From IMG/VR virus record IMGVR_UViG_3300037247_001239, positions 10,579-74,578 of that record: a DNA stretch of 64,000 nucleotides. The stretch is one strand, 5' to 3'. Position numbers and translations under genes: made by a program. How positions within the stretch are numbered: the stretch's first letter is position 1; every line of letters starts with the position of its first letter. The DNA is from a virus. Below are positions 1 to 63,017 of this stretch, in pieces. Below the pieces are notes generated by a model. It had not been told where the DNA came from. It saw only the letters and a list, made by a program, of their open reading frames with translations, and searched no databases.

Positions 1-65
1 CGCCTGGCAACAGATGTCCGCGTTCGGCCGCCCGTTTTTCGTCCCCCCTCACAAGGAGCAATGTC

Positions 66-305
66 ATGTGTGACCCCCCTACCGTCACGCCATTGACTGG
101 CGAGCAGCTTTTGGCTCTCCGGTCAATGGACGACCCCGATATGTTCACCCGCGAAGAACTTTACGATCTGCGGAGACGGGCCCTTAGTCGGATCCACCCA
201 AGCCAAGATGATGGTTGGGCCCGAGCCTTTCAGCGCCTCGCCGACGCGGCCGACATCCTGGACGCCTTTTATGGTCGTTCATCGGTGCAAAAAGGTCCCG
301 CCTGA
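66..305 (+). CDS. hypothetical phage protein
   Basis: 79-aa ORF preceded by AAGGAG. Confidence 0.7.
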   Translation: MCDPPTVTPLTGEQLLALRSMDDPDMFTREELYDLRRRALSRIHPSQDDGWARAFQRLADAADILDAFYGRSSVQKGPA

Positions 306-312
306 TTGTTTC

Positions 313-341
313 TTGACTCGGCGGGCCGTATCGGCTAGGTT
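313..341 (+). promoter_or_regulatory. sigma70-type promoter TTGACT-N17-TAGGTT
   Basis: -35 at 313-318, -10 at 336-341, 17-bp spacer, just after the stop of ORF 66..305. Confidence 0.6.
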
Positions 342-347
342 GGCGAA

Positions 348-673
348 TGCCAGCCGCCTGGTCGACTCAAATACCGCCTCACCGAAGAGGCAGGGCCCAT
401 CCCGGAGGTCCGAGGGGGTCGCAACCTTTGATGCTACTCTGGTTGCCGGTCGCAAGACCGAGAGGCATCGCGCCAGGCCCGCCATCCGGCTGGAGACGTT
501 CCAGGAGCCCGCGACAACTGGCAAGAACCGAAGCTAGAGCGGAAAGTCCGCTTGGGCACCCGCATACGAAAGCGGCTCGGCATTCGGGTTGTCGCACCCA
601 TTGCCCACGACCAGGGCAGTACGTGGAAGGCTAGCGATGTAGCCACGTCAAAAATCCAGAACGGAGGCCCTGG
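348..673 (+). ncRNA. candidate structured ncRNA or long leader upstream of HNH gene
   Basis: Nested helices 350-356/487-493, 357-361/473-477, 376-380/387-391, 447-451/456-460 (GCAA loop), 511-518/588-595, 538-543/547-552, 602-606/614-618, 621-626/643-648; no credible ORF. Confidence 0.5.
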
Positions 674-685
674 GGGAATTGCAGC

Positions 686-1174
686 ATGGGTGCATACCAA
701 AAGCGCAACAGGCGATTGGAAAAGCTCGGTTACGAGTCCTATGAGGAGTATCTACAAAGCAACCTCTGGAATTCCATTCGCAGCCGCGTTATGACCCGAG
801 ACCAGCAGAAATGCCGCATTTGTGGAGGTCGGGCGTCGAATGTCCACCATTGGGGCTACCGCGAACCCACCCTGCTGGGGAAGTGCTTACTGGAGTTGTG
901 GGCACTCTGCCGCAAATGCCACCTGTTTATCGAGTTCGAGAAAAACGGCGAAAAAGCCAAATTTGGCAGTGCTCGTAGGCGACTGAAAATACTCTGCCGT
1001 CTAAAGGGATTGACATTTGACTCGGTCAACCCGCGGTGGGATGGAAAACCACCCCCTAAACGACGAAAACGGCGGCGATGCCAATTCTGCGGCATACGAA
1101 AGACCTTGGGCACGTTCCGCACTACAGAAAACCCTGTCTGCCGTAAATGTGAGAAGGAACTCGCAATAGTATAG
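686..1174 (+). CDS. HNH endonuclease with C-terminal Zn ribbon
   Basis: YEEYLQS..W..R, CRIC, VHH, LCRKCH; C-terminal CQFC..CRKC. Confidence 0.8.
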   Translation: MGAYQKRNRRLEKLGYESYEEYLQSNLWNSIRSRVMTRDQQKCRICGGRASNVHHWGYREPTLLGKCLLELWALCRKCHLFIEFEKNGEKAKFGSARRRLKILCRLKGLTFDSVNPRWDGKPPPKRRKRRRCQFCGIRKTLGTFRTTENPVCRKCEKELAIV

Positions 1175-1390: not shown

Positions 1391-1608
1391 TCCGGCCCGC
1401 CGTGACCTTTGGATCTGTCCTATTTTTGGAAAGGGGGATTCTGATGGCATGGGATCAAACAGGTGATCTGAAGACTTGGGCGGCAGCCGACAGGGCCATG
1501 GCGGCGACCCAGGCAGCGCTCAGAGCCAGAGAGGAAGCCAAGCAGGCCGAATCCGAAAAGGGGCCGGTTGAGAAACCTGACGGCGGTGTCCGGCCCGCCG
1601 TGACCTTT
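1391..1608. repeat. 20-bp direct repeat TCCGGCCCGCCGTGACCTTT
   Basis: Identical copies at 1391-1410 and 1589-1608. Confidence 0.85.
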
Positions 1609-3392: not shown

Positions 3393-3574
3393 CCAAACGC
3401 TGGCCAAAACCCTGCCAAAGTCTGACCAAAGCTCGACCACTTCGCGGATGAGGTGGCGTCGCGCCGATCGCATTGACGGTCTGGCTTGGCGCTGCGCGAC
3501 GGTTTCGGCGAAGTCTTGTCGGTGGTTTGCTCAGGTTTTGGCGGGAGTTTGGCGGGTGCTCGGCGGTGGTTTGA
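3393..3574. repeat. opposed arrays of 11-bp-phased CCAAA / TTTGG-like pentamers
   Basis: CCAAA at 3393, 3404, 3415, 3426; TTTGG-like at 3504, 3515, 3526, 3537, 3548, 3559, 3570. Confidence 0.65.
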
Positions 3575-3766
3575 TCGCATCGGCGAAGGCGACTTCGGGC
3601 CGAGCATCGGCGCGTCGGCCGACTTGACTTCACCCACCGCGACGCCGGTCAGTTGCGGTCGATCACATCGGCCAGCTCGCCCTGCGATTTCTGGGGATCC
3701 TGATTTCTGGCCACTCCCAAAACAGCCAATCCAGAATTATTCTCGCCTTGTAACGTGTTGGCTTAT

Positions 3767-3790
3767 CTCGACTTACAACTCGACTTGCAA
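3767..3790. repeat. tandem 12-bp repeat CTCGACTTRCAA, possible operator
   Basis: 3767-3778 and 3779-3790, 10 bp upstream of the -35 box. Confidence 0.55.
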
Positions 3791-3800
3791 TAGCACAGTC

Positions 3801-3828
3801 TTGACACGTTTGGGATTGCCGATATGAT
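3801..3828 (+). promoter_or_regulatory. sigma70-type early promoter TTGACA-N16-TATGAT
   Basis: Perfect -35 and near-consensus -10, ahead of the cassette-like gene run. Confidence 0.75.
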
Positions 3829-3868
3829 ATCGGGCGAGTCGAAACCGAAACCCTATCGGAGTTGAATC

Positions 3869-4153
3869 ATGAAAATGCGAAGCGAAGACTTTGCAGCAAT
3901 GCGGGAGGCAATCGCAAATAGCTTCCCCCGGGAGTGCAAGACTCCAGGAAAGCGGCTGACCTTTGCGGAGTGGCGTTTGGAGTATTGTGCACGCGGACTA
4001 TCGGAGGAACGGTTCCGGTGGGATTGCTTGCACGCCTCCGGCTACAATACCCGCCCCCTCTATGCCTACCTGCATGACAGCCACATCGACACAGCGCTTA
4101 GGCGCATCATCGTACTACTAGCCAACGCCCCTCCTGCACTCCTGGAGGTCTAA
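3869..4153 (+). CDS. hypothetical early protein
   Basis: Motif-led start; RFRWD..YL.DSHIDTALR resembles a phage family. Confidence 0.75.
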   Translation: MKMRSEDFAAMREAIANSFPRECKTPGKRLTFAEWRLEYCARGLSEERFRWDCLHASGYNTRPLYAYLHDSHIDTALRRIIVLLANAPPALLEV

Positions 4154-4154
4154 C

Positions 4155-4364
4155 ATGCGTCGCCCCGCCCTCATCCCGTCCGCTTTGCGATCCGCCCGAG
4201 AAGACCGGGACTGGTCGCAGCAAACCTTAGCTGTGAAGCTCGGCATCACGGTGACCACGGTTTGCAGGTGGGAAACGGGCGTGAACGTGCCGAACCTACC
4301 CACCCTTCGCCGGGTTGCGAAGGCGCTCGGCGTTACCCTCAGTACCCTAGTCGAGGAGAGTTGA
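4155..4364 (+). CDS. XRE/Cro-family HTH regulator
   Basis: WSQQTLAVKLGITVTTVCRWETGVNVP. Confidence 0.9.
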   Translation: MRRPALIPSALRSAREDRDWSQQTLAVKLGITVTTVCRWETGVNVPNLPTLRRVAKALGVTLSTLVEES

Positions 4365-4368
4365 GACG

Positions 4369-4563
4369 ATGCCAGAATTACTGAAACTGTATGGCGGCGA
4401 GCCTGCCCCGCACACGGTTGAAAAATGCCCCAATACCGGCAAGCTCCTGTTCTGGCCACAATTGGACGGGCCGCACGGTGATGCCCACACCCTGTACTGC
4501 CAGCTCTGTGGCGTAGCCGTTCGGAAGGAGCCGTATCCAGAAGAGACGCGCACTCACCCCTAA
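4369..4563 (+). CDS. hypothetical protein
   Basis: Motif-led start. Confidence 0.7.
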   Translation: MPELLKLYGGEPAPHTVEKCPNTGKLLFWPQLDGPHGDAHTLYCQLCGVAVRKEPYPEETRTHP

Positions 4564-4638
4564 CCCCCCCCACTACAATGCCCCCGCGCTGCAGTAACAG
4601 CCGGGGGCGTGGCCCTCAACTGAGAAGGAGTTGAAAGC

Positions 4639-4824
4639 ATGTCTACTCTACCTTCCCCGCCCGCTCTGGGCAAGCCAATCCTCTGTTGCTGGTGTGATCG
4701 GCCCGCCAGCGCCGCCCCCGTGATCTATGCGGGCATGTCCCACCCGACGTGTCTCGACCACTCAATTCGCTACAACACCCTCCCGCCGCGGCCTCATAAG
4801 AACAGCAAAGGGGGTGCGGTATGA
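4639..4824 (+). CDS. small Zn-finger-like protein
   Basis: CCWC..CLDH; motif-led start. Confidence 0.65.
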   Translation: MSTLPSPPALGKPILCCWCDRPASAAPVIYAGMSHPTCLDHSIRYNTLPPRPHKNSKGGAV

Positions 4825-5384
4825 GAAGCATACGCCTAGAACCCCGCGACGTACCGGCCGTATTCCGCCGAGCTTTCCCGGAGTACAGGGGCCGCACGTT
4901 TGCAGTCGAGACCCGCAACGAAGTGGAGTTCTCCGACAACTACTGGTCCGGCGGTACAAAATACACCTATCGCGGCCTAGACCTGGCAACCGGGGAGGCG
5001 CACGACCCGTTGATCGGCAACGAATCGGGTGGCCACCCCTGCCAGCCAGCATCCCCTACCGTCAAGCTAGAACCGGGGAAAGCCATAGTCTGCCACAAGA
5101 TATTCTGCGGGAAGGATCACGGGCTCGTGTTCTATATCCACCCCGATAACCTCAGCAAACTGCTGCCGGCCCCGGCCGAACTACCGAACGACCAGCGGGC
5201 AGTATTGGAGGTGATTTGCAGTATCAAGGGCGGGCAGTATCGACGGGATGAATTCGACCGGGCCGGGCTGGGCGAGTACTCCGCCGAGCATCCCGGGATT
5301 GTGGCCCTGGCATCGGCCGGGCTGGTCAAGATCAACCGGGCGGGAGCCGTATCGGTCACCGTTGCCGGTCGCAACGCACGTTGA
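4821..5384 (+). CDS. hypothetical phage protein
   Basis: 187 aa, ATGA coupling. Confidence 0.75.
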   Translation: MRSIRLEPRDVPAVFRRAFPEYRGRTFAVETRNEVEFSDNYWSGGTKYTYRGLDLATGEAHDPLIGNESGGHPCQPASPTVKLEPGKAIVCHKIFCGKDHGLVFYIHPDNLSKLLPAPAELPNDQRAVLEVICSIKGGQYRRDEFDRAGLGEYSAEHPGIVALASAGLVKINRAGAVSVTVAGRNAR

Positions 5385-5471
5385 CGACCCCGCCCCCGCG
5401 CTCCCTGGCAACAGGGAGCCGGCGGGCTGGCCGTTGGAGCCAGCGTAACCCTAGCAAAGGAGAGTGAGACG

Positions 5472-5750
5472 ATGAGAACCATTCCCATGAGCCGCAAGCA
5501 TCAGGGACTGCATATCGAAGCACCCGGTTGCATCGTGAACATCCGGAACCTAAACGACAGTGAGGGCCAGCCTATAACCTTCATTGACGTAAACGCTGAC
5601 GGCGACCGATATTCGGGCGAGCCTGAATGGTGGTGTATAGATGCTGGTGCGATTCTGGGAGTCCGAGGGATCGGCATCCGCATCGTCCAAGGCATTGACA
5701 AGCCAACGGAAAGATACGTTCCACTAGACGAACGAGTACCCATACCCTAA
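5472..5750 (+). CDS. hypothetical protein
   Basis: Motif-led start. Confidence 0.7.
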   Translation: MRTIPMSRKHQGLHIEAPGCIVNIRNLNDSEGQPITFIDVNADGDRYSGEPEWWCIDAGAILGVRGIGIRIVQGIDKPTERYVPLDERVPIP

Positions 5751-5837
5751 ATACCCTTGACAACCCCCGGCCCCCGCGCCTCCCGGTGGCGGCGCGGCGC
5801 CGGTAGTTGTACCCTGACCCTAGAAGGAGTTGAGACT

Positions 5838-6059
5838 ATGAACATGCGAGATTTCATCCGCCAGAACCGGGCCGAGATTGACGTGGCGATCGACCGCGCG
5901 GTGGGCTTTGTCCCGCGCACGGCAAGCTGCGATTGCCCAAAGTCGGGCACAGACCACCACCACCAGCCAGAACAACGCAACGATAACGAGCGGCGGCAAT
6001 GGATATTGAACGATGAAGGTTTCTATAACTGGGCGCGGCGTGAGGGCGTCCCAATCTAG
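5838..6059 (+). CDS. hypothetical protein
   Basis: ATG at 5838 after GGAGTTGAGAC; ERRQWILNDEGFYNW. Confidence 0.75.
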   Translation: MNMRDFIRQNRAEIDVAIDRAVGFVPRTASCDCPKSGTDHHHQPEQRNDNERRQWILNDEGFYNWARREGVPI

Positions 6060-6108
6060 CCGCCCCGCCTCCCGGTAGTTGTTACCCTAACAGACTGGAG
6101 TTGAGACT

Positions 6109-6747
6109 ATGAACCTACCCGAAAAGTACCGCCCGCGCACCTGGCAGGATGTGGTGGGCCAAGAGAAGCTGGTCGCAGACCTTCAGCGGATCCGCGACAA
6201 CGGCGGGCTGGGCGGCAACGCCTACTGGCTCAGCGGCAAGAGCGGGACCGGCAAGACCACGATCGGCCGGCTGATTGCGGCAGAGGTGGCCGACGACTAT
6301 TGCACAGACTATCTCCACGCCCGGGAGTTGACCCCCGCGCTGTTGCGCGACATTGACCGGGCTATGGCTTACCGCGGCATTGGCCAGAAGGGCGGCCGGG
6401 CGTGGGTGGTTGACGAATGCCACCTGTTGACGGATCGGCAGGTGGGGGCGTTGTTGGACCTGACCGAACCGATACCGGATCATATCGTGTGGGTCTTCAC
6501 CACAACTACGGCGGGCCAGCTCAAATTCGACTGGCTTGACGACGCGGGCCCGCTCTTGTCCCGTTGCATCCGCCCCAAGATGGCCACAAACCTCGCCCAA
6601 CCTTTTGCCGAACGAGCACGGGAGATCGCCGTCTCCGAGGGCCTGGACGGGCGGCCGATCAGCTACTATGTGGAGCGCGTCAAGCAGAACCGAAACAACC
6701 TGCGCGCCGTGTTACAGGAAATCCAGCAGGGGAGAATGCGACCGTAG
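6109..6747 (+). CDS. clamp-loader-clade AAA+ ATPase (DnaX/RFC-like, short)
   Basis: EKYRP..WQDVVGQ, GKSGTGKTT, VVDECH, PLLSRC. Confidence 0.85.
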   Translation: MNLPEKYRPRTWQDVVGQEKLVADLQRIRDNGGLGGNAYWLSGKSGTGKTTIGRLIAAEVADDYCTDYLHARELTPALLRDIDRAMAYRGIGQKGGRAWVVDECHLLTDRQVGALLDLTEPIPDHIVWVFTTTTAGQLKFDWLDDAGPLLSRCIRPKMATNLAQPFAERAREIAVSEGLDGRPISYYVERVKQNRNNLRAVLQEIQQGRMRP

Positions 6748-7189: not shown

Positions 7190-7465
7190 ATGTACGAATA
7201 CACTCCCGGACCGTGGGAAACCGTTGCCGGGCCAACCGATGGCGACCTCGCAGTCTGTGAGCCAGAGGGAGGCGACGAAATTGCTATAGTCACTAACGGA
7301 TCAATTTGTGACCGTGATTTAATCGCCGCCGCGCCTGAGTTGCTGGAAGCGTGCCAAGCTGCACTCCCAGCATTATCAGCCCATGAGCAAACGGGCTGCG
7401 ATTGTCCTGATAGCGATGCTGCCCGACTACTCCGCGCAGCCATTGCCAAAGTCGAGAACGCCTAA
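7190..7465 (+). CDS. phage 'HTPGPW..IAAAPELL' family protein
   Basis: YTPGPW..DLIAAAPELLEAC. Confidence 0.8.
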   Translation: MYEYTPGPWETVAGPTDGDLAVCEPEGGDEIAIVTNGSICDRDLIAAAPELLEACQAALPALSAHEQTGCDCPDSDAARLLRAAIAKVENA

Positions 7466-10417: not shown

Positions 10418-10797
10418 TCCAAACTCCTTAGAGTGATACAGTTTTGGGACGTGATAATCTCCGCTTTGTCTCCAGCCTGGCGATACTGGCCGAGCGACCT
10501 GCGAGCTCTCCGCATTGTGGCACAGTATTCGGTGCGAGTGAACCCCCTAGGGTTCTCGCTGAACATATGGACGCTGAGCTTCGCCGGAGACAAATGGCTT
10601 TGTGTTGGGGATGGTTCAGCCGACGCTTTATTGGATGCCACAAGCTCCACGCCTGGCGACATGAGCTTGGCCAATTCGTGGAGCGACACCATCACCGGCG
10701 CTTTCTTTTGCGGGCGCGCAAATGCGGCGCCGGGCAACACGCCCACGCTTCCCACAGCAACCCCCATGCACTCACGACGACTGATTCGACTTTCCAT
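10414..10797 (-). CDS. hypothetical protein with twin-arginine-like leader
   Basis: MESRISRRECMGVAVGSVG; AGGAAAGGA upstream. Confidence 0.55.
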   Translation of the reverse strand: MESRISRRECMGVAVGSVGVLPGAAFARPQKKAPVMVSLHELAKLMSPGVELVASNKASAEPSPTQSHLSPAKLSVHMFSENPRGFTRTEYCATMRRARRSLGQYRQAGDKAEIITSQNCITLRSLE

Positions 10798-38888: not shown

Positions 38889-39861
38889 CGTTTTGCCTCC
38901 GTATCCTGGCCTTCAACTCGGTCGAGTTGTAGCCCGGGGTGTACGGCACCTCGACCAGCTTCCCGCCCCAGTGTGGCAGGGCGTCTATCACGAGTTGCCG
39001 AGACGCCGCCTGAACACCTTCCCGCCAATCGTCGCCGTGTACCACGTAGGCCGGCTTGTGGGCCAAGAGGCTCCGGAGGTAGTCTCCCTGACACGTCACG
39101 TGGGCCACGCCCTTCAGTCCCGTGGCCACCGCCAGCCGTGCGGAATAGCCGAACGCCGGCTCTGGCTTGTATTTGCAAATTGCCTCGTCGGATAGCAGCC
39201 CTATCCAAACCTCCTTTGCGTCCAGCGAGGCAGCCACACTCAATACGTTCAGGTGTCCCGGATGCACCACGTCCAGACACATCGGCACGTAGGCGATGTC
39301 CTGTTTTGTCAAGAAGTGCGGCTTGTACGCTCGATGCTCGCACGGCTGATTGTACTCTGTGTCGGGAACTTCCCACTGGTCGTAAAGTTCGTGGAGGATG
39401 TACACATAATCGCTGGGTACATTGAACAGCCTGCCGTATAGCACCCCCGGCCGCCATGCGCCAAACGCCTCGGCGGCAAGCACGATACAAAACGGATCGG
39501 GGCTGCCGTGGGTAGGGTTGTAGCGGTACGGCCCGAGCTTGGTAAACGCCGTCAGGTCGCCGTGTTCGCCGTACCCCTTGAACTTCACCGCGTAGGGCCG
39601 CCCGTCCCAGTAGCCGGCGTGGCGGTGGTCGATCACCTCGGTCTGGATCCCCCGCCGCTGTATGGCCTTGACAATCGCCTCGACGGCCGGCTCGAACTCC
39701 TCGGCCCTCGCCCAGAGGTCGATGTCGCGGTCGATTGCAATGAACTTGTCCTCACGGGTCCAGCCCAACAGCGTGCCGGCCCCCAAGCAGAACGGCAGCC
39801 TAACATCCTTCAGGGCATCGGCCACATGGAACAGCAGCTTGCAGGCGTTGTGTTCGTTCAT
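38866..39861 (-). CDS. LicD-family transferase fused to cytidylyltransferase
   Basis: GTLLGWTRE..I..DRDIDL; HPGH, VVHGDDW, EVPYTPGYNST. Confidence 0.85.
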   Translation of the reverse strand: MNEHNACKLLFHVADALKDVRLPFCLGAGTLLGWTREDKFIAIDRDIDLWARAEEFEPAVEAIVKAIQRRGIQTEVIDHRHAGYWDGRPYAVKFKGYGEHGDLTAFTKLGPYRYNPTHGSPDPFCIVLAAEAFGAWRPGVLYGRLFNVPSDYVYILHELYDQWEVPDTEYNQPCEHRAYKPHFLTKQDIAYVPMCLDVVHPGHLNVLSVAASLDAKEVWIGLLSDEAICKYKPEPAFGYSARLAVATGLKGVAHVTCQGDYLRSLLAHKPAYVVHGDDWREGVQAASRQLVIDALPHWGGKLVEVPYTPGYNSTELKARIRRQNDAQETRR

Positions 39862-41207
39862 CCGGTTGCGCTCACGGTCTGTTGTCGAAACGCGAGATTG
39901 CCAATACACCCCCGGCAGCAATCATGTCGAGTCCTAGGGAACCCGGCCAGCAACTCCAGGTATCCCACCTGTAGACGGCAGTGGCTCTCGGGATACCGGG
40001 CCAGATCCAGGCCAAACTCATTCGCCACCGTGACCAGCATTGCGCAGCCGTAGACGCGGTCGCCCAGCAACGCCGGACCCTCGCACCCGCATCGGGCCGG
40101 CAGCACCTCGCTGCCGGCCAGTTCACGGGGGATCAGGTAGTGCCGCCGCCGGGGCGCCACCTCGACCTTGGCCCCGTACCGTTCTTGCAGCCGCCGAATG
40201 GCCCGGTTGTTGTCGCCATAGTACGAAATCCGCAACGTCGACAGCGATTCCATCAACCCATCGGTCACCCGGTCGACGGGATCCCCATTCGTAAACAGGT
40301 TCACCTGGTCGCCCAGTCCCGACTCCCGCAACAGCCGGGCTCCCTCCTCGACGTGCGGCCACAGCAGCGGTTCGCCACCGGTGAGGATCAGCGAGCGGTA
40401 GGGCGGATAGCCAGACGCCTTGGTGAGCTGGATCCATTCCACAAGGTCGTTCAGCGATAGTTCGTAGTCGGGGGCCCACCGGCGAAACCCCCGCTGCGAA
40501 CACTCGGGGCAGTCCCGCGTGCAACGGGCGGTGGTGAAGAAATTGAAATGATTGTTCTGGTGGTCCAGCACGGGCAGCCTATTCGTGAGATAGTTCTTCG
40601 GCGGCTGCATCCGGCCAATCCGCAGATTCTCCAGGTTGCCCCCGAGGATCCGCTGGTCGCGCGGCGGATGATCAACGTGCATCAAGGGAAACTGCCGCAA
40701 CTCCACGGTCTCGATCCCACGCTCCCTCCGCCGCAACGCTAGGATGTCGTCCTCGCCGCCGTGGCCGGTCAGCCGCTCGTCCCAACCGCCCACCCGCAAC
40801 CAGTCGGCCGCGGTCATGGCCACCCAGCTACCGGTCCCGTCCTCTCGGATTGGCAGCCCCAGCCACCCTTTCCAGTCCAGCTCGCCGGCCCTCTCCGCAG
40901 GCAGGTTGCGACACTTGGCCCACACGGCCGTGCCGTCCGCAACCGTGCGCCGCGTATGCTCGACCAGTCCCGGGGGCACCAGCATATCTACGTCGGTGCA
41001 GACGATCGCCCGGGAGGAAGACAGGGCCGCAAGAATCCCGTCGTTGCGGGCCTTGGCTCGGCTGAACTCGTCTAGTTTAATTGCCATGTGGAGATTGATT
41101 AGTTCGTAGCCAAGTGTTTTTTGCAGCGTGGCCTTGAAGCGATCCCGGACTTCGTCGGAGATCCCCACGGCAGCAACCACGATTCCCAACGGGCGGTTAT
41201 CCATCAT
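39858..41207 (-). CDS. glycosyltransferase - radical SAM fusion
   Basis: SRAKARN, DVDM, GGWDE..GHGGEDD; CTRDCPEC, LTGGEPL, FTNG. Confidence 0.85.
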   Translation of the reverse strand: MMDNRPLGIVVAAVGISDEVRDRFKATLQKTLGYELINLHMAIKLDEFSRAKARNDGILAALSSSRAIVCTDVDMLVPPGLVEHTRRTVADGTAVWAKCRNLPAERAGELDWKGWLGLPIREDGTGSWVAMTAADWLRVGGWDERLTGHGGEDDILALRRRERGIETVELRQFPLMHVDHPPRDQRILGGNLENLRIGRMQPPKNYLTNRLPVLDHQNNHFNFFTTARCTRDCPECSQRGFRRWAPDYELSLNDLVEWIQLTKASGYPPYRSLILTGGEPLLWPHVEEGARLLRESGLGDQVNLFTNGDPVDRVTDGLMESLSTLRISYYGDNNRAIRRLQERYGAKVEVAPRRRHYLIPRELAGSEVLPARCGCEGPALLGDRVYGCAMLVTVANEFGLDLARYPESHCRLQVGYLELLAGFPRTRHDCCRGCIGNLAFRQQTVSATG

Positions 41208-53530: not shown

Positions 53531-54634
53531 TTACTTCCTCGCGTCTATCTCGACGCTCTTGAAACGCAACGCTTCGCCGAGCGGTTTTTCCTGAAACAGG
53601 ACCGTGCCGTCGAGCGTCTCCCACTCGACACGCTGGGGCGGCAGTTTGGCGAGCACCTTCGCGGCCAAGGCGTCAAGGTCAATCGGCGACATGGAGGCTG
53701 CCTCCCCCGGCGGCCCCTTCTCGGCGGCACACGCTGCGACCTGTTCCTGCAGCGCCTTGACCTGGCTCTCCAACTCGGCCACCCGCGCGAGCAGCGCCGC
53801 ACAGGCCGGCGCGACCGGCGTACCGGTCGGCGGTTGTTTAGGCTCCATGGGCACCACCTGCCTGGGCTTGGGGAGCACGATACCGGGACGGTTGGGATAC
53901 GGCGGCAGAACTGCCCGCAGAATTCGCCGCAGACGGGGGAAGCCACAGCCGACGGTCGTACGCTTGTCTGTCCCGCTGATCACACCCACAATCCGGCCAC
54001 GGGGACCTAGCATCGGCCCGCCCGAATCTCCCTGGCGGCACACGGCCGAAATCTCTGCCAACTCAAACGGCGTTGACCGGGACGGTGCGGAGAAGCCGAC
54101 TAATTGGCCGCGGGTGTGCCGGTAGGTCCCAAGTCCCCAGCCCGCAACCCAAACCGTATCCCCGCGCGTCGGTGCCGTGTCGGCCACGGGCAAGGGCTTG
54201 ATCCCGGGGTCTTTGATCCTCAGCACAATCACATCCCAGAGGGCATCCTGCCTCACGATGGTTGCTGGGTATTCCCGCCCGCCGGCCAGAACGAACATGC
54301 CCTGCTTGGGGCCGTGTTCGCAGGTCACCACGTAGGCCACGCCGTCGCGGCGGTCGAAAATCGTACCGCTACCGGCGCCAGTCACTTGGACCTGCCGGCC
54401 CTCTTTCACAACTCGATACCGACAGATCACTCGCACGATCGCCGGGTTGCCGGTCTGCCGGGGCTGCTGAGGGCGCTGAAGCTGCCGAGGCCGTGCGGGC
54501 GCTGCCGAGCCCGCTCGCCAGCCATCCGTGGGCAGTGGACAGACCTGTTCCGGTGGGCACGGAGCTTGTGCCTCGGCGACGGCCAGCGTCAGGGCAATCA
54601 GCGTCAGGGCAGCGGCAATGGTGGAGAGTTTCAC
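53531..54634 (-). CDS. secreted trypsin-like (S1) serine protease
   Basis: Signal peptide; VVTCEH, DVIVL, GDSGGP; C-terminal coiled coil. Confidence 0.9.
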   Translation of the reverse strand: MKLSTIAAALTLIALTLAVAEAQAPCPPEQVCPLPTDGWRAGSAAPARPRQLQRPQQPRQTGNPAIVRVICRYRVVKEGRQVQVTGAGSGTIFDRRDGVAYVVTCEHGPKQGMFVLAGGREYPATIVRQDALWDVIVLRIKDPGIKPLPVADTAPTRGDTVWVAGWGLGTYRHTRGQLVGFSAPSRSTPFELAEISAVCRQGDSGGPMLGPRGRIVGVISGTDKRTTVGCGFPRLRRILRAVLPPYPNRPGIVLPKPRQVVPMEPKQPPTGTPVAPACAALLARVAELESQVKALQEQVAACAAEKGPPGEAASMSPIDLDALAAKVLAKLPPQRVEWETLDGTVLFQEKPLGEALRFKSVEIDARK

Positions 54635-54657
54635 GGCGTCTCCTGAAAAACTGGCCA

Positions 54658-54707
54658 AGAAACACAAAACGCCCGGATTCTCAGCCGGTTGGCTGAAAAC
54701 CCGGGCG
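54658..54707 (-). terminator. intrinsic terminator at head of late region
   Basis: 17-bp stem (two G-U) CGCCCGGGTTTTCAGCC-AACC-GGCTGAGAATCCGGGCG followed by TTTTGTGTTTCT. Confidence 0.8.
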
Positions 54708-61721: not shown

Positions 61722-61948
61722 TCACCTCCTGGGAATTCCCGCCGCTGTATTCGTCTGACTTTTACAACCACACTCAATTGCACGCAGAGGCATGCCACTC
61801 CTAGTCCGCATTCGCCGCGCCTGCAATCAAACCAGCCGATCGGCACCGGCAACAGCGGAATCCAGTTGTGCGGCCAGAGATACCGCACACGCCTGCACGC
61901 GGCCACCAGCACTATTGACTTCCCGTGGTAGCTTCTAGTTGCCATCAT
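61718..61948 (-). CDS. hypothetical protein
   Basis: GGAGGTGA RBS before ATGATG. Confidence 0.45.
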   Translation of the reverse strand: MMATRSYHGKSIVLVAACRRVRYLWPHNWIPLLPVPIGWFDCRRGECGLGVACLCVQLSVVVKVRRIQRREFPGGE

Positions 61949-63017
61949 CACCTCCGGGAAACTCTCGCCGCCGAGCCCACTCGGGAAACTCGGCCATGTT
62001 TGCGGCGACCTTGCCGTTGATTTCGAGCTGCTTGACGAAGACCGGCACGCCAGCCGCGTCGGCCTGGTCGACGAGCGACTTGACCCACTCCGGCTTGCAC
62101 GGGCGGCGGTGGGGGCCTGATTCGCAGCCGATGATGAGCCAATCGATGACAGGCGGCGTCGGATATTTCCCTTCGCAGCCGTATTCGCCGAACTCTTCGA
62201 TTGCACCACACCGCGGGCAACTTGTGTCGTAAGCATCCTCACCACAGCGACAGACCTCTGCGCACATCTCGTCGCCACAGCGCTGGCAAAACAGATGAGG
62301 TCCAGTAACATTGCCCACGTACTTACAGTCGACGCACGAGTAGTTTCCAGCCAAGTAGCCGTCGAGATCCAGCTCCTCCAGCAATGGTTCAATAGACAAG
62401 AATCTGAATACCGCCGGAACCTTCAGCAACTCCTCGACCCGCCACAGGCTGTCTGGGTGGCCGACCGTGGTGCCAAGGCCGACGTTAGGTGGCAGCAACT
62501 CGCCAGTCTTCTGCCAGCGAGCAAGCACGCAATCGCCGTGCGGATGACTGTACGCTACCACGGCTGACCTCTCGGCCACCATGTACGCAAATGCCGAGCT
62601 GCACAACAGTTTCGAGGCTCTGTCTGGCCGTTTTGTGAGAATCAGGAAGTGGTGACCAACTCTTCGCGTTCTCGGCGAGAGACATACGGCCAGCGTGCGG
62701 GCAATGTTGTCGTCAGACACCCCCTCATGGAACAAGTCATTCCACACCGACCAGACCGTCGGCTTGCGGACCCGCAGCGGCTTGTCGAGGTCGCCTTCTA
62801 TGAAGCGGACCTTACCGTTGAACTTGCCCTGCGCATTGAGCAGGCCAGCGTAGCGGGCTCGTATCTTGGCGTTGGGGTTGTGTTGGCGCATGTTCGATGC
62901 CGTCGCCGACCAGCAGTGGAGGCACTCGGGAGCGCAGGGAGTGCAGCCTGCGACTAACTCCCAGCCTTGGCCCCACCATAGCCCTTTCGCAACTCGTGCG
63001 GCGTCAACTTGCATCAC
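61935..63017 (-). CDS. DUF5131 (phage Gp37/Gp68) family protein
   Basis: GCTPCAPECLHCW, DLFHE, LTKRP, FLSIEPLL, WLIIGCESG, FVKQ. Confidence 0.9.
   Translation of the reverse strand: MMQVDAARVAKGLWWGQGWELVAGCTPCAPECLHCWSATASNMRQHNPNAKIRARYAGLLNAQGKFNGKVRFIEGDLDKPLRVRKPTVWSVWNDLFHEGVSDDNIARTLAVCLSPRTRRVGHHFLILTKRPDRASKLLCSSAFAYMVAERSAVVAYSHPHGDCVLARWQKTGELLPPNVGLGTTVGHPDSLWRVEELLKVPAVFRFLSIEPLLEELDLDGYLAGNYSCVDCKYVGNVTGPHLFCQRCGDEMCAEVCRCGEDAYDTSCPRCGAIEEFGEYGCEGKYPTPPVIDWLIIGCESGPHRRPCKPEWVKSLVDQADAAGVPVFVKQLEINGKVAANMAEFPEWARRREFPGGDDGN

Follow-up and report, generated by a model that had tools for sequence, protein, structure and literature searches.

A candidate cis-acting 5′ leader, partly structured, ahead of a free-standing HNH endonuclease gene in an orphan marine-sediment phage

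The window analyzed here—one strand of 64,000 nucleotides—comprises bases 10,579–74,578 of a 74,578-base IMG/VR virus record (IMGVR_UViG_3300037247_001239). The sole public sequencing run that contains DNA of this virus is a marine-sediment metagenome, a DNA run that is probably its source; among RNA runs, none is listed as containing it. Among the proteins encoded by the contig are the large terminase subunit (TerL), a serine recombinase, and, at 4155–4364, an XRE-type repressor; many others have no family. Searches of IMG/VR with the HNH, TasA, and TerL proteins as queries gave no close match, and the contig is without close relatives; relatives were also sought with two HNH relatives, P0004 and P0007, as queries. 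The focal DNA (positions 313–1174) has no match among cultured-phage records, and the HNH protein, compared with these records at the level of both DNA and protein, finds one distant match only. A word-index protein search with the HNH protein returned the self-match alone, and its alignment found no match in genome contigs.

The focal region features a promoter box, a long stretch poor in open reading frames (ORFs), and the gene of a small HNH endonuclease (Table 1). The sequence motifs listed for it by the first-pass annotation all lie where they had been placed, the ATG at 686 included. Box and palindrome occur a second time at the left edge of the window, ahead of a 79-aa ORF. Directly left of the window, on the opposite strand and divergent from the focal region, lies a TIGR-Tas system. 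Its TasA is a 416-aa protein that scores 111 bits against the NCBIfam model TIGR_Tas_endo (NF052498; cut-off 100 bits). After it come, in this order, a 17-unit array in which GAGTGAACCG and GAGAGTCTG repeats alternate and the spacers are 8 nt long, a ParB-like gene, and a 3-unit array—both arrays being situated left of the window. The gene cluster adjoining the focal region is a nuclease-less TasA with a guide array.

Table 1. Features of the HNH locus and its left neighborhood (window positions unless contig positions are given)
Feature	Position	Strand	Remarks
Promoter box, copy 1 (P1)	contig 10,520–10,553, just left of window	+	same 34-nt box as P2
Palindrome, copy 1, GCCAGTCGCCTGG	contig 10573–10585; 3′ half = window 1–7	+	
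79-aa ORF	66–305	+	downstream of first promoter copy; GGAG ribosome-binding site 8 nt before ATG; no family match
Promoter box, copy 2 (P2), CTTGAC-N15-GGCTAGGTTGGCG	312–345	+	−35 TTGACT 313–318; 17-nt spacer; −10 TAGGTT 336–341
ORF-poor candidate leader	348–685	+	GC about 0.63; no + strand terminator before HNH start
Palindrome, copy 2 / 5′ hairpin GCCAG-CCGC-CUGGU	349–362	+	pairing probability 0.56 in 348–685 context
Predicted hairpin GCAACC (421–426) / GGUUGC (441–446)	421–446	+	14-nt loop; p > 0.9 in all contexts
Predicted hairpin CGGUC-GCAA-GACCG	447–460	+	GNRA-type tetraloop; in minimum-free-energy folds
Predicted anti-Shine-Dalgarno strand	473–494	+	pairs with 655–673 in minimum-free-energy fold, 3/4 contexts
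Predicted three-way-junction domain closed by GCGACAAC/GUUGUCGC	511–595	+	inner hairpins GCGGA-AAG-UCCGC and CCGC-N8-GCGG
Predicted hairpin GGCUA-GCGAUG-UAGCC	629–644	+	extended by ACGU/ACGU; p 0.8–0.98
Candidate Shine-Dalgarno region	655–678	+	GGAGG 663–667 (18 nt before ATG); GGGGGA 673–678 (7 nt before ATG)
Free-standing HNH endonuclease, 162 aa	686–1174	+	CxxC...HH...CxxCH zinc-binding core, residues 43–79; C-terminal CxxC...CxxC ribbon

Judged by its sequence, the 162-aa protein is a zinc-binding, free-standing phage HNH endonuclease of a large phage family. The residues C43, C46, H54, H55, C75, C78, and H79 are invariant in the family alignments, and the C-terminal ribbon is common to some of the relatives. 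Among cluster representatives, 5,653 relatives were found at E ≤ 1e-3, the best with 40–48% identity. PHROG HNH families are matched at an E value of about 1e-8; no Pfam model is matched at E ≤ 1. Among structures, the family profile matches Cas5(CasD)-HNH Cascade best, in its HNH domain (E 2.4e-7), and an IscB more weakly (E 0.033). The NCBIfam IscB model NF040563 gives 18.2 bits against a cut-off of 175 (E 0.0011) and covers residues 18–85 only, i.e., the HNH part. IscB itself was discarded as an identity for the protein: the HNH fold excepted, neither RuvC nor any other part of IscB is present. The earlier description of a compact HNH nuclease lacking RuvC is borne out by the PHROG match and by the restriction of the protein to the HNH core. 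The GC content of the ORF is about 0.53, as opposed to about 0.63 in the stretch upstream of it and about 0.60 in the contig.

The contig contains two copies, and no more, of the promoter box CTTGAC-N15-GGCTAGGTTGGCG; they are 370 nt apart, and 0.01 occurrences are expected by chance. Downstream of both boxes stands the palindrome GCCAGNCGCCTGG, at a distance of 20 nt from the first and of 4 nt from the second. P1 lies upstream of the 79-aa ORF and P2 upstream of a 340-nt gap and the HNH gene; transcription from P2 is predicted to start near 347–349. A tandem duplication was considered and rejected: the 370-nt units after P1 and P2 share box and palindrome only. DNA-level repeats or iterons were not found within 300–700. 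A scan of metagenome contigs for the box returned 10 unrelated GC-rich loci; in one of these it precedes a seven-tRNA operon by 39 nt, and several others have the start of an ORF no more than about 100 nt away. Because the same box stands before a tRNA operon and before ORFs in unrelated GC-rich contigs, it credibly looks, as far as sequence tells, like a common sigma-70-type promoter from GC-rich bacteria. The motif TTGACT-N17-TAGGTT matches the consensus at 5/6 positions of the −35 and at 3/6 positions of the −10 hexamer, and it is this poor −10 hexamer that explains why a generic sigma-70 scan does not call P2. The promoter annotated at 313–341 thus gains from the duplication of the box together with its palindrome, which is beyond chance, but is not seconded by the generic scan.

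The repeated palindrome may serve as an operator or as an RNA hairpin like the lambda nut site. Like lambda-type nut sites, it is short, can be read as a hairpin or palindrome (GCCAGNCGCCUGG), and recurs shortly after two early promoters of the same strand; unlike them, it features no boxA, a different loop, and two copies only, and no N-like protein was identified.

Between the predicted transcription start and the HNH gene, no supported ORF is found in any of the six frames, and the stretch 348–685 is treated as non-coding. On the + strand, each frame is interrupted by stops or is short of a start codon. In frame +0, stops fall at 336 and 429, and the first start thereafter is a TTG at 552. 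Frame +1 is open to 537, but the one start it offers past the predicted transcription start would coincide with the −35 hexamer. Frame +2 contains a 95-aa ORF from an ATG at 347—exactly at the predicted transcription start. Pfam and PHROG searches with the ORFs of the gap on both strands gave no match, nor did frame +0 read through its stops from 66 to 794 find a homologue. A weak three-base periodicity continues the frame of the upstream ORF; it stays within chance and would fit a decayed coding remnant. The first-pass annotation had seen no credible ORF across the region, which agrees with these results, and the conserved protein in one frame that would have spoken against a structured RNA was not found.

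An unrecognized small protein gene in the gap is accordingly improbable. Its candidates are the 95-aa ORF, which would be read from a leaderless mRNA with the ATG coinciding with the predicted transcription start; an 81-aa minus-strand ORF (524–279); and an 80-aa ORF (552–794). The hexamer scores of frames +0 and −2 (−0.13 and −0.07) come near those of real small genes of this phage (−0.08 to −0.10), but antisense frames of real genes score as well in the hexamer model. In the 95-aa ORF, moreover, Arg, Pro, and Gly abound, the codon-position GC is inverted (GC2 > GC1 > GC3), and the hexamer score is the poorest among the + frames. Neither of the other two has a ribosome-binding site or a family match, and they overlap the promoter or the HNH gene.

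The + strand of 348–685 folds at −143.4 kcal/mol with z = −2.31 (3/100 dinucleotide shuffles as good) and, in a second run, with z = −2.56, whereas the − strand stays at chance (z = −0.49). Same-length background windows across the contig, 50 in number and taken on both strands, have a mean z of 0.08 (sd 1.2) and a minimum of −1.99, so that none of the 50 folds as well. The predicted fold is, hence, modestly better than chance and on the + strand only, its z lying in the tail, some 2 sd away from the background of the contig; the comparison with shuffles that had been proposed earlier is passed to this modest extent on one strand. The excess is unevenly distributed: z is −1.71 for 348–496 and −2.95 for the domain 511–595 (folded as 505–600; 0/200 shuffles as good), and the last 90 nt, 596–685, fold at chance level (z = −0.5). 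Other gaps of the same phage fold differently, with z = +1.3 at 1175–1443 and z = −4.6 at 3401–3868.

Pairing probabilities were computed under four choices of flanking sequence. Three elements are robust across the flanks: the helix GCGACAAC (511–518) / GTTGTCGC (588–595), which pairs with a probability of about 1.0 in all contexts tried, and the hairpins 421–446 and 629–644. The second domain of the first-pass annotation, closed by this helix, is thereby confirmed in the model, its minimum-free-energy fold making up 30% of the ensemble, and the hairpin with the GCAA tetraloop is likewise recovered. Two further elements did not hold. The bulged GGTTGC at 441–446, which had been put forward as one side of a potential pseudoknot, proves to be just the 3′ strand of the plain hairpin 421–446. 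The helix CCAGCCG (350–356) / CGGCTGG (487–493), thought to close a first, multi-hairpin domain, reaches a probability of 0.17 at best and falls to 0 with more flank: its 5′ strand is competed for by the local CCAG/CUGG hairpin of the repeated promoter module and its 3′ strand by the predicted pairing of 473–494 with the Shine-Dalgarno region.

This latter pairing would bear on how the HNH gene is translated. Other early genes of the phage carry a GGAG 8–9 nt upstream of their start, as against the GGAGG at 18 nt of the HNH gene, whose ribosome-binding site is, on sequence grounds, poor and weakly placed. In all four contexts, the Shine-Dalgarno region 663–673 is predicted to be paired, with an unpaired probability of at most 0.24 per position and mostly of at most 0.05. 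Its predicted main partner is the strand 473–494, and the pairing of 473–494 with 655–673, present in three of the four contexts, encloses the domain 511–595. The energy of the duplex (−38.0) compares with −33.5 ± 2.9 for shuffled leaders, 73/1000 of which are as good, and is therefore not significant.

What stands is a predicted transcript that would be driven by P2 and precede the HNH gene, non-coding and structured in part. As its best explanation, held tentatively and with a confidence slightly short of even, 348–685 would be a long, partly structured, cis-acting 5′ untranslated leader of the HNH mRNA. P2 of the duplicated module, in the rightward early region of the phage, would start an RNA near 347–349. 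This RNA would run on into the HNH message, since no + strand terminator-like site lies between 306 and 686. It would form the stable hairpins and the three-way domain, followed by the weakly placed ribosome-binding site, which would be paired with the upstream strand 473–494. Synthesis of the HNH nuclease would then be low or conditional, as is known of homing endonucleases, both free-standing and intron-encoded, in T4-type phages. A transcription start at P2, this fold in vivo, and the restraint on translation are steps that we infer—the last of them because the duplex is no better than with shuffled leaders.

In favor of such a leader speak the recurrence of box and palindrome well beyond chance, the absence of a + strand terminator and of a supported ORF on either strand, the strand-specific folding excess with helices stable across contexts, and the predicted pairing of the Shine-Dalgarno region in every context. 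Against it speak that it rests on a single sequence whose z of about −2.4 is only a tail value, that shuffled leaders match the duplex, that the 3′ 90 nt fold at chance, that the −10 hexamer is poor and the generic scan calls no promoter, and that homologous HNH genes have no comparable leader. Its length of 340 nt is, in addition, far greater than that of the T4 hairpins.

These T4-family leaders are the nearest known counterpart. I-TevI, I-TevII, I-TevIII, segB, and Aeh1 mobE are controlled by hairpins in which the ribosome-binding site is sequestered (PMC2988022); these are single hairpins of 30–60 nt with a late promoter nested inside (PMC2988022). The locus described here resembles them in having a candidate promoter of its own and an RNA structure predicted over the Shine-Dalgarno sequence of a phage nuclease gene, and the common logic would be that a potentially harmful nuclease is kept low. 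It differs in featuring about 340 nt with several domains and a long-range pairing, a predicted pairing that is statistically indistinguishable from chance, and no nested promoter that could be found.

Several of the same observations can be accommodated by a stretch that does nothing. The gap could be a non-functional spacer, with the duplicated promoter module on one side and an acquired HNH cassette on the other; it might, for instance, be what is left of a gene that was lost or disrupted, and its fold would be a by-product of high GC. This is a possible reading, yet a doubtful one. No homologue was found in any collection searched, the folding excess is modest and its 3′ part at chance, and the phage has other long non-coding gaps. 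The lower GC content of the HNH ORF relative to leader and contig suggests separate origins, and the codon-phase GC weakly prolongs the pattern set by the frame of the upstream ORF, which is what one would expect of a decayed coding remnant. Frame +0 read through its stops, however, has no protein relatives. A high-GC by-product is also at variance with an excess that is confined to one strand and matched by none of the background windows and with a domain 511–595 as well defined as described above, and the second copy of the promoter at this very place implies a stretch meant for transcription.

Relatives of the RNA were sought in phage records, IMG/VR, metagenome contigs, and public sequencing runs, and none was found; nor does the contig contain a second copy. 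A covariance model of the domain 511–595 returned the self-match only. Rfam gave no match at gathering score across the whole window and none at E ≤ 10 across positions 1–1500, as might be expected of something uncatalogued, which is what had been suggested earlier. The HEARO model RF02033 and the RNase P model RF00010 had no match at E ≤ 10 either in 1–1500 or when run alone over the whole record. A tRNA/tmRNA search was likewise empty. Two exact, collinear words of a sort typical of bacterial RNase P RNA, GGAAAGTCCG and CCCACGACCAG, are common to the leader and the annotated record of E. coli rnpB. Bacterial RNase P RNA was nevertheless dismissed, as the RF00010 signal is missing and GGAAAGTCCG corresponds to the local hairpin GCGGA-AAG-UCCGC; the shared words were judged a coincidence.

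The lack of relatives also weighs on a reading in which P2 drives an independent RNA, or one processed from the HNH message, that acts in trans on targets, in host or phage, with no relation to the HNH protein. Its own promoter copy, the compact stable domains, and a GC content above the phage average would suit such an RNA. It should, on the other hand, have a terminator or a defined 3′ end before the HNH start, which is absent, and neither a second copy, nor a relative, nor a match to a known sRNA or ribozyme family could be found. It is therefore unlikely, if not to the degree of a hidden protein gene.

If the RNA worked together with the HNH protein, it might be expected to accompany its homologues. 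Nineteen IMG/VR loci that encode HNH homologues were compared, the closest relatives P0003, P0004, P0007, and P0008, at 43–48% identity, not being among them. In these 19 loci, nhmmer and blastn detected no similarity to the focal RNA, the covariance model of the domain 511–595 had no match, and the upstream gap is not constant but varies by locus. A linkage of the RNA to HNH homologues, which had been named as a check on the original idea, thus fails to appear. Upstream of 17 of the homologues, the 338 nt have a mean z of −1.06, a slight advantage over shuffles. The strongest homologue case, L022, was examined as a shared leader RNA and discarded, its fold being explained by a terminator and a minus-strand ORF.

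The first-pass annotation had seen in the RNA a new non-coding class—a guide or partner of a minimal HNH protein in the manner of an omega RNA, a ribozyme, or a mobile-element RNA. Its appeal lies in the position directly upstream of an HNH gene, as with HEARO/omega RNA and IscB; in the resemblance of the HNH profile to RNA-guided enzymes given above (Cas5-HNH and IscB); and in the nuclease-less TasA with a guide array next door. HEARO RNA of IscB (RF02033; NF040563) is a structured RNA of 200–300 nt immediately upstream of an HNH-domain gene, and in this the present locus is alike. It differs in having no RF02033 match, a protein of 162 aa with the HNH core only and no RuvC, and neither multiple copies nor transposon ends. 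HEARO and all other Rfam families are without a match at E ≤ 10, the protein reaches 18 of the 175 bits of IscB, and the homologue loci carry neither the RNA nor Tas or ParB. The contig, furthermore, holds one copy and no terminal repeats, and the region has neither a match to the TIGR spacers nor TIGR repeats. With no Rfam match, no linkage to HNH genes, and a family of more than 5,000 free-standing HNH proteins, the proposal finds no support and is considered very improbable.

Equally remote is a variant that joins the two neighboring systems: a leader RNA bound by the small HNH protein, or working with the nuclease-less TasA, as a split RNA-associated nuclease module. If true, this module would be a trans-acting counterpart of TasH or a minimal pair like IscB and omega RNA.

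The TIGR-Tas cluster itself is of a known kind. Operons of tasA and tasParB with variable flanks have been described (PMC12045711), and the neighboring cluster, with TasA, dual-repeat arrays, and a ParB-like gene, is one such system; the focal RNA differs from it in having no TIGR repeats and in not being targeted by spacers. According to a 2026 preprint, TasA is an RNA-guided repressor. Paired TIGR spacers match the contig no more often than shuffled sequence does, with 0 matches in 313–1174. The TIGR unit GAGTGAACCG-N8-GAGAGTCTG, sought with up to 3 mismatches, has no match anywhere in the window, the focal RNA included. A TIGR array or tigRNA was therefore ruled out as the identity of the focal RNA, which lacks the alternating edge and loop repeats. 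Neither Tas nor ParB is found within 2.5 kb of the 19 HNH-homologue loci. Since no spacer targets the region, no TIGR repeats occur in the window, and the homologue loci are without Tas and ParB, the adjacency of the HNH gene and the TIGR-Tas system is most simply coincidental.

The more notable biology of this locus lies in the adjoining TIGR array with the TasA and ParB-like genes, a kind of system that has already been described, and in the duplicated promoter–palindrome module, which may be a regulatory neighbor of it. The value of the leader is limited by its being a singleton in an orphan marine-sediment phage and a thermodynamic prediction only. Restraint of phage nucleases by RNA structure is a theme known from T4; if the leader throttles the HNH nuclease, it would be one more, and unusually long, case of phages using RNA structure to rein in nucleases that are selfish or risky.

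The 162-aa HNH protein encoded on the plus strand at window 686–1174 belongs to a family of free-standing phage HNH endonucleases that is widespread (>5,000 members) and, despite this size, is recognised by no model of Pfam. Among solved structures, the family comes closest to HNH-Cascade, in which an HNH domain is joined to Cas5 (CasD) and gives the match (E 2.4e-7). The putative structured leader upstream of the gene (window 348–685) contains GGAAAGTCCG at 541–553 and CCCACGACCAG at 604–614, two exact words of the kind seen in bacterial RNase P RNA and arranged in the order of E. coli rnpB. These shared words were judged a coincidence because a covariance-model match was lacking.

Upstream of each copy of the direct repeat TCCGGCCCGCCGTGACCTTT lies a strand containing CGGCGG (1293–1310 and 1573–1586) with which the copy can pair, and the start of one small ORF follows the copy after 25–35 nt, at 1444 and 1634. 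A related end, ATTCCGGCCCGCC, is located near contig position 7400, after the shorter of the two TIGR arrays described below.

The second half of the ORF-free gap (3401–3868) folds far better than shuffled sequence on the plus strand (z = −4.6, negative values denoting better folding), and z is −2.0 on the minus strand. The early genes have a leader motif in common—ACCCTA...GGAG(A)(T)TGAGAC, within window 3840–6110—that is positioned 8–9 nt upstream of the ATG.

Features of the window and of the full virus record (L003, in contig coordinates)
Feature	Position	Strand	Remark
TIGR-Tas system	L003 7590-10339	minus	left of window
Promoter box, then palindrome GCCAGNCGCCTGG	L003 10520-10585; window 312-362		duplicated module
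TCCGGCCCGCCGTGACCTTT	1391-1410; 1589-1608		exact 20-nt direct repeat
Stretch with excess predicted folding	3401-3868		second half of ORF-free gap, ~830 nt
TTGACA-N17-TATGAT	3801-3829		strong promoter at end of gap; heads next early operon
Early genes with leader motif	starts 3869, 4369, 4639, 5472, 5839, 6109
448-aa ORF	39858-41207	minus	glycosyltransferase-like N-terminal part, radical SAM domain
Trypsin-like peptidase	53531-54667
DUF5131	61935-63017

The TasA-like gene of the TIGR-Tas system encodes 416 aa and scores 111 bits against NCBIfam TIGR_Tas_endo. After this gene come a dual-repeat array of 17 units (GAGTGAACCG / GAGAGTCTG, 8+8-nt spacers, period of 35 nt), a ParB-like gene, and an array of three units—the same layout as in the tasA–tasParB arrangement (PMC12045711). 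Targeting of the own contig by the spacer pairs was not above chance. In the second copy of the promoter–palindrome module, the last pair of the palindrome is G–U, with the RNA pairing kept and the DNA palindrome broken. The palindrome could serve as an operator for the XRE repressor (4155–4364) or the ParB-like protein, or as an RNA hairpin resembling a lambda nut site.
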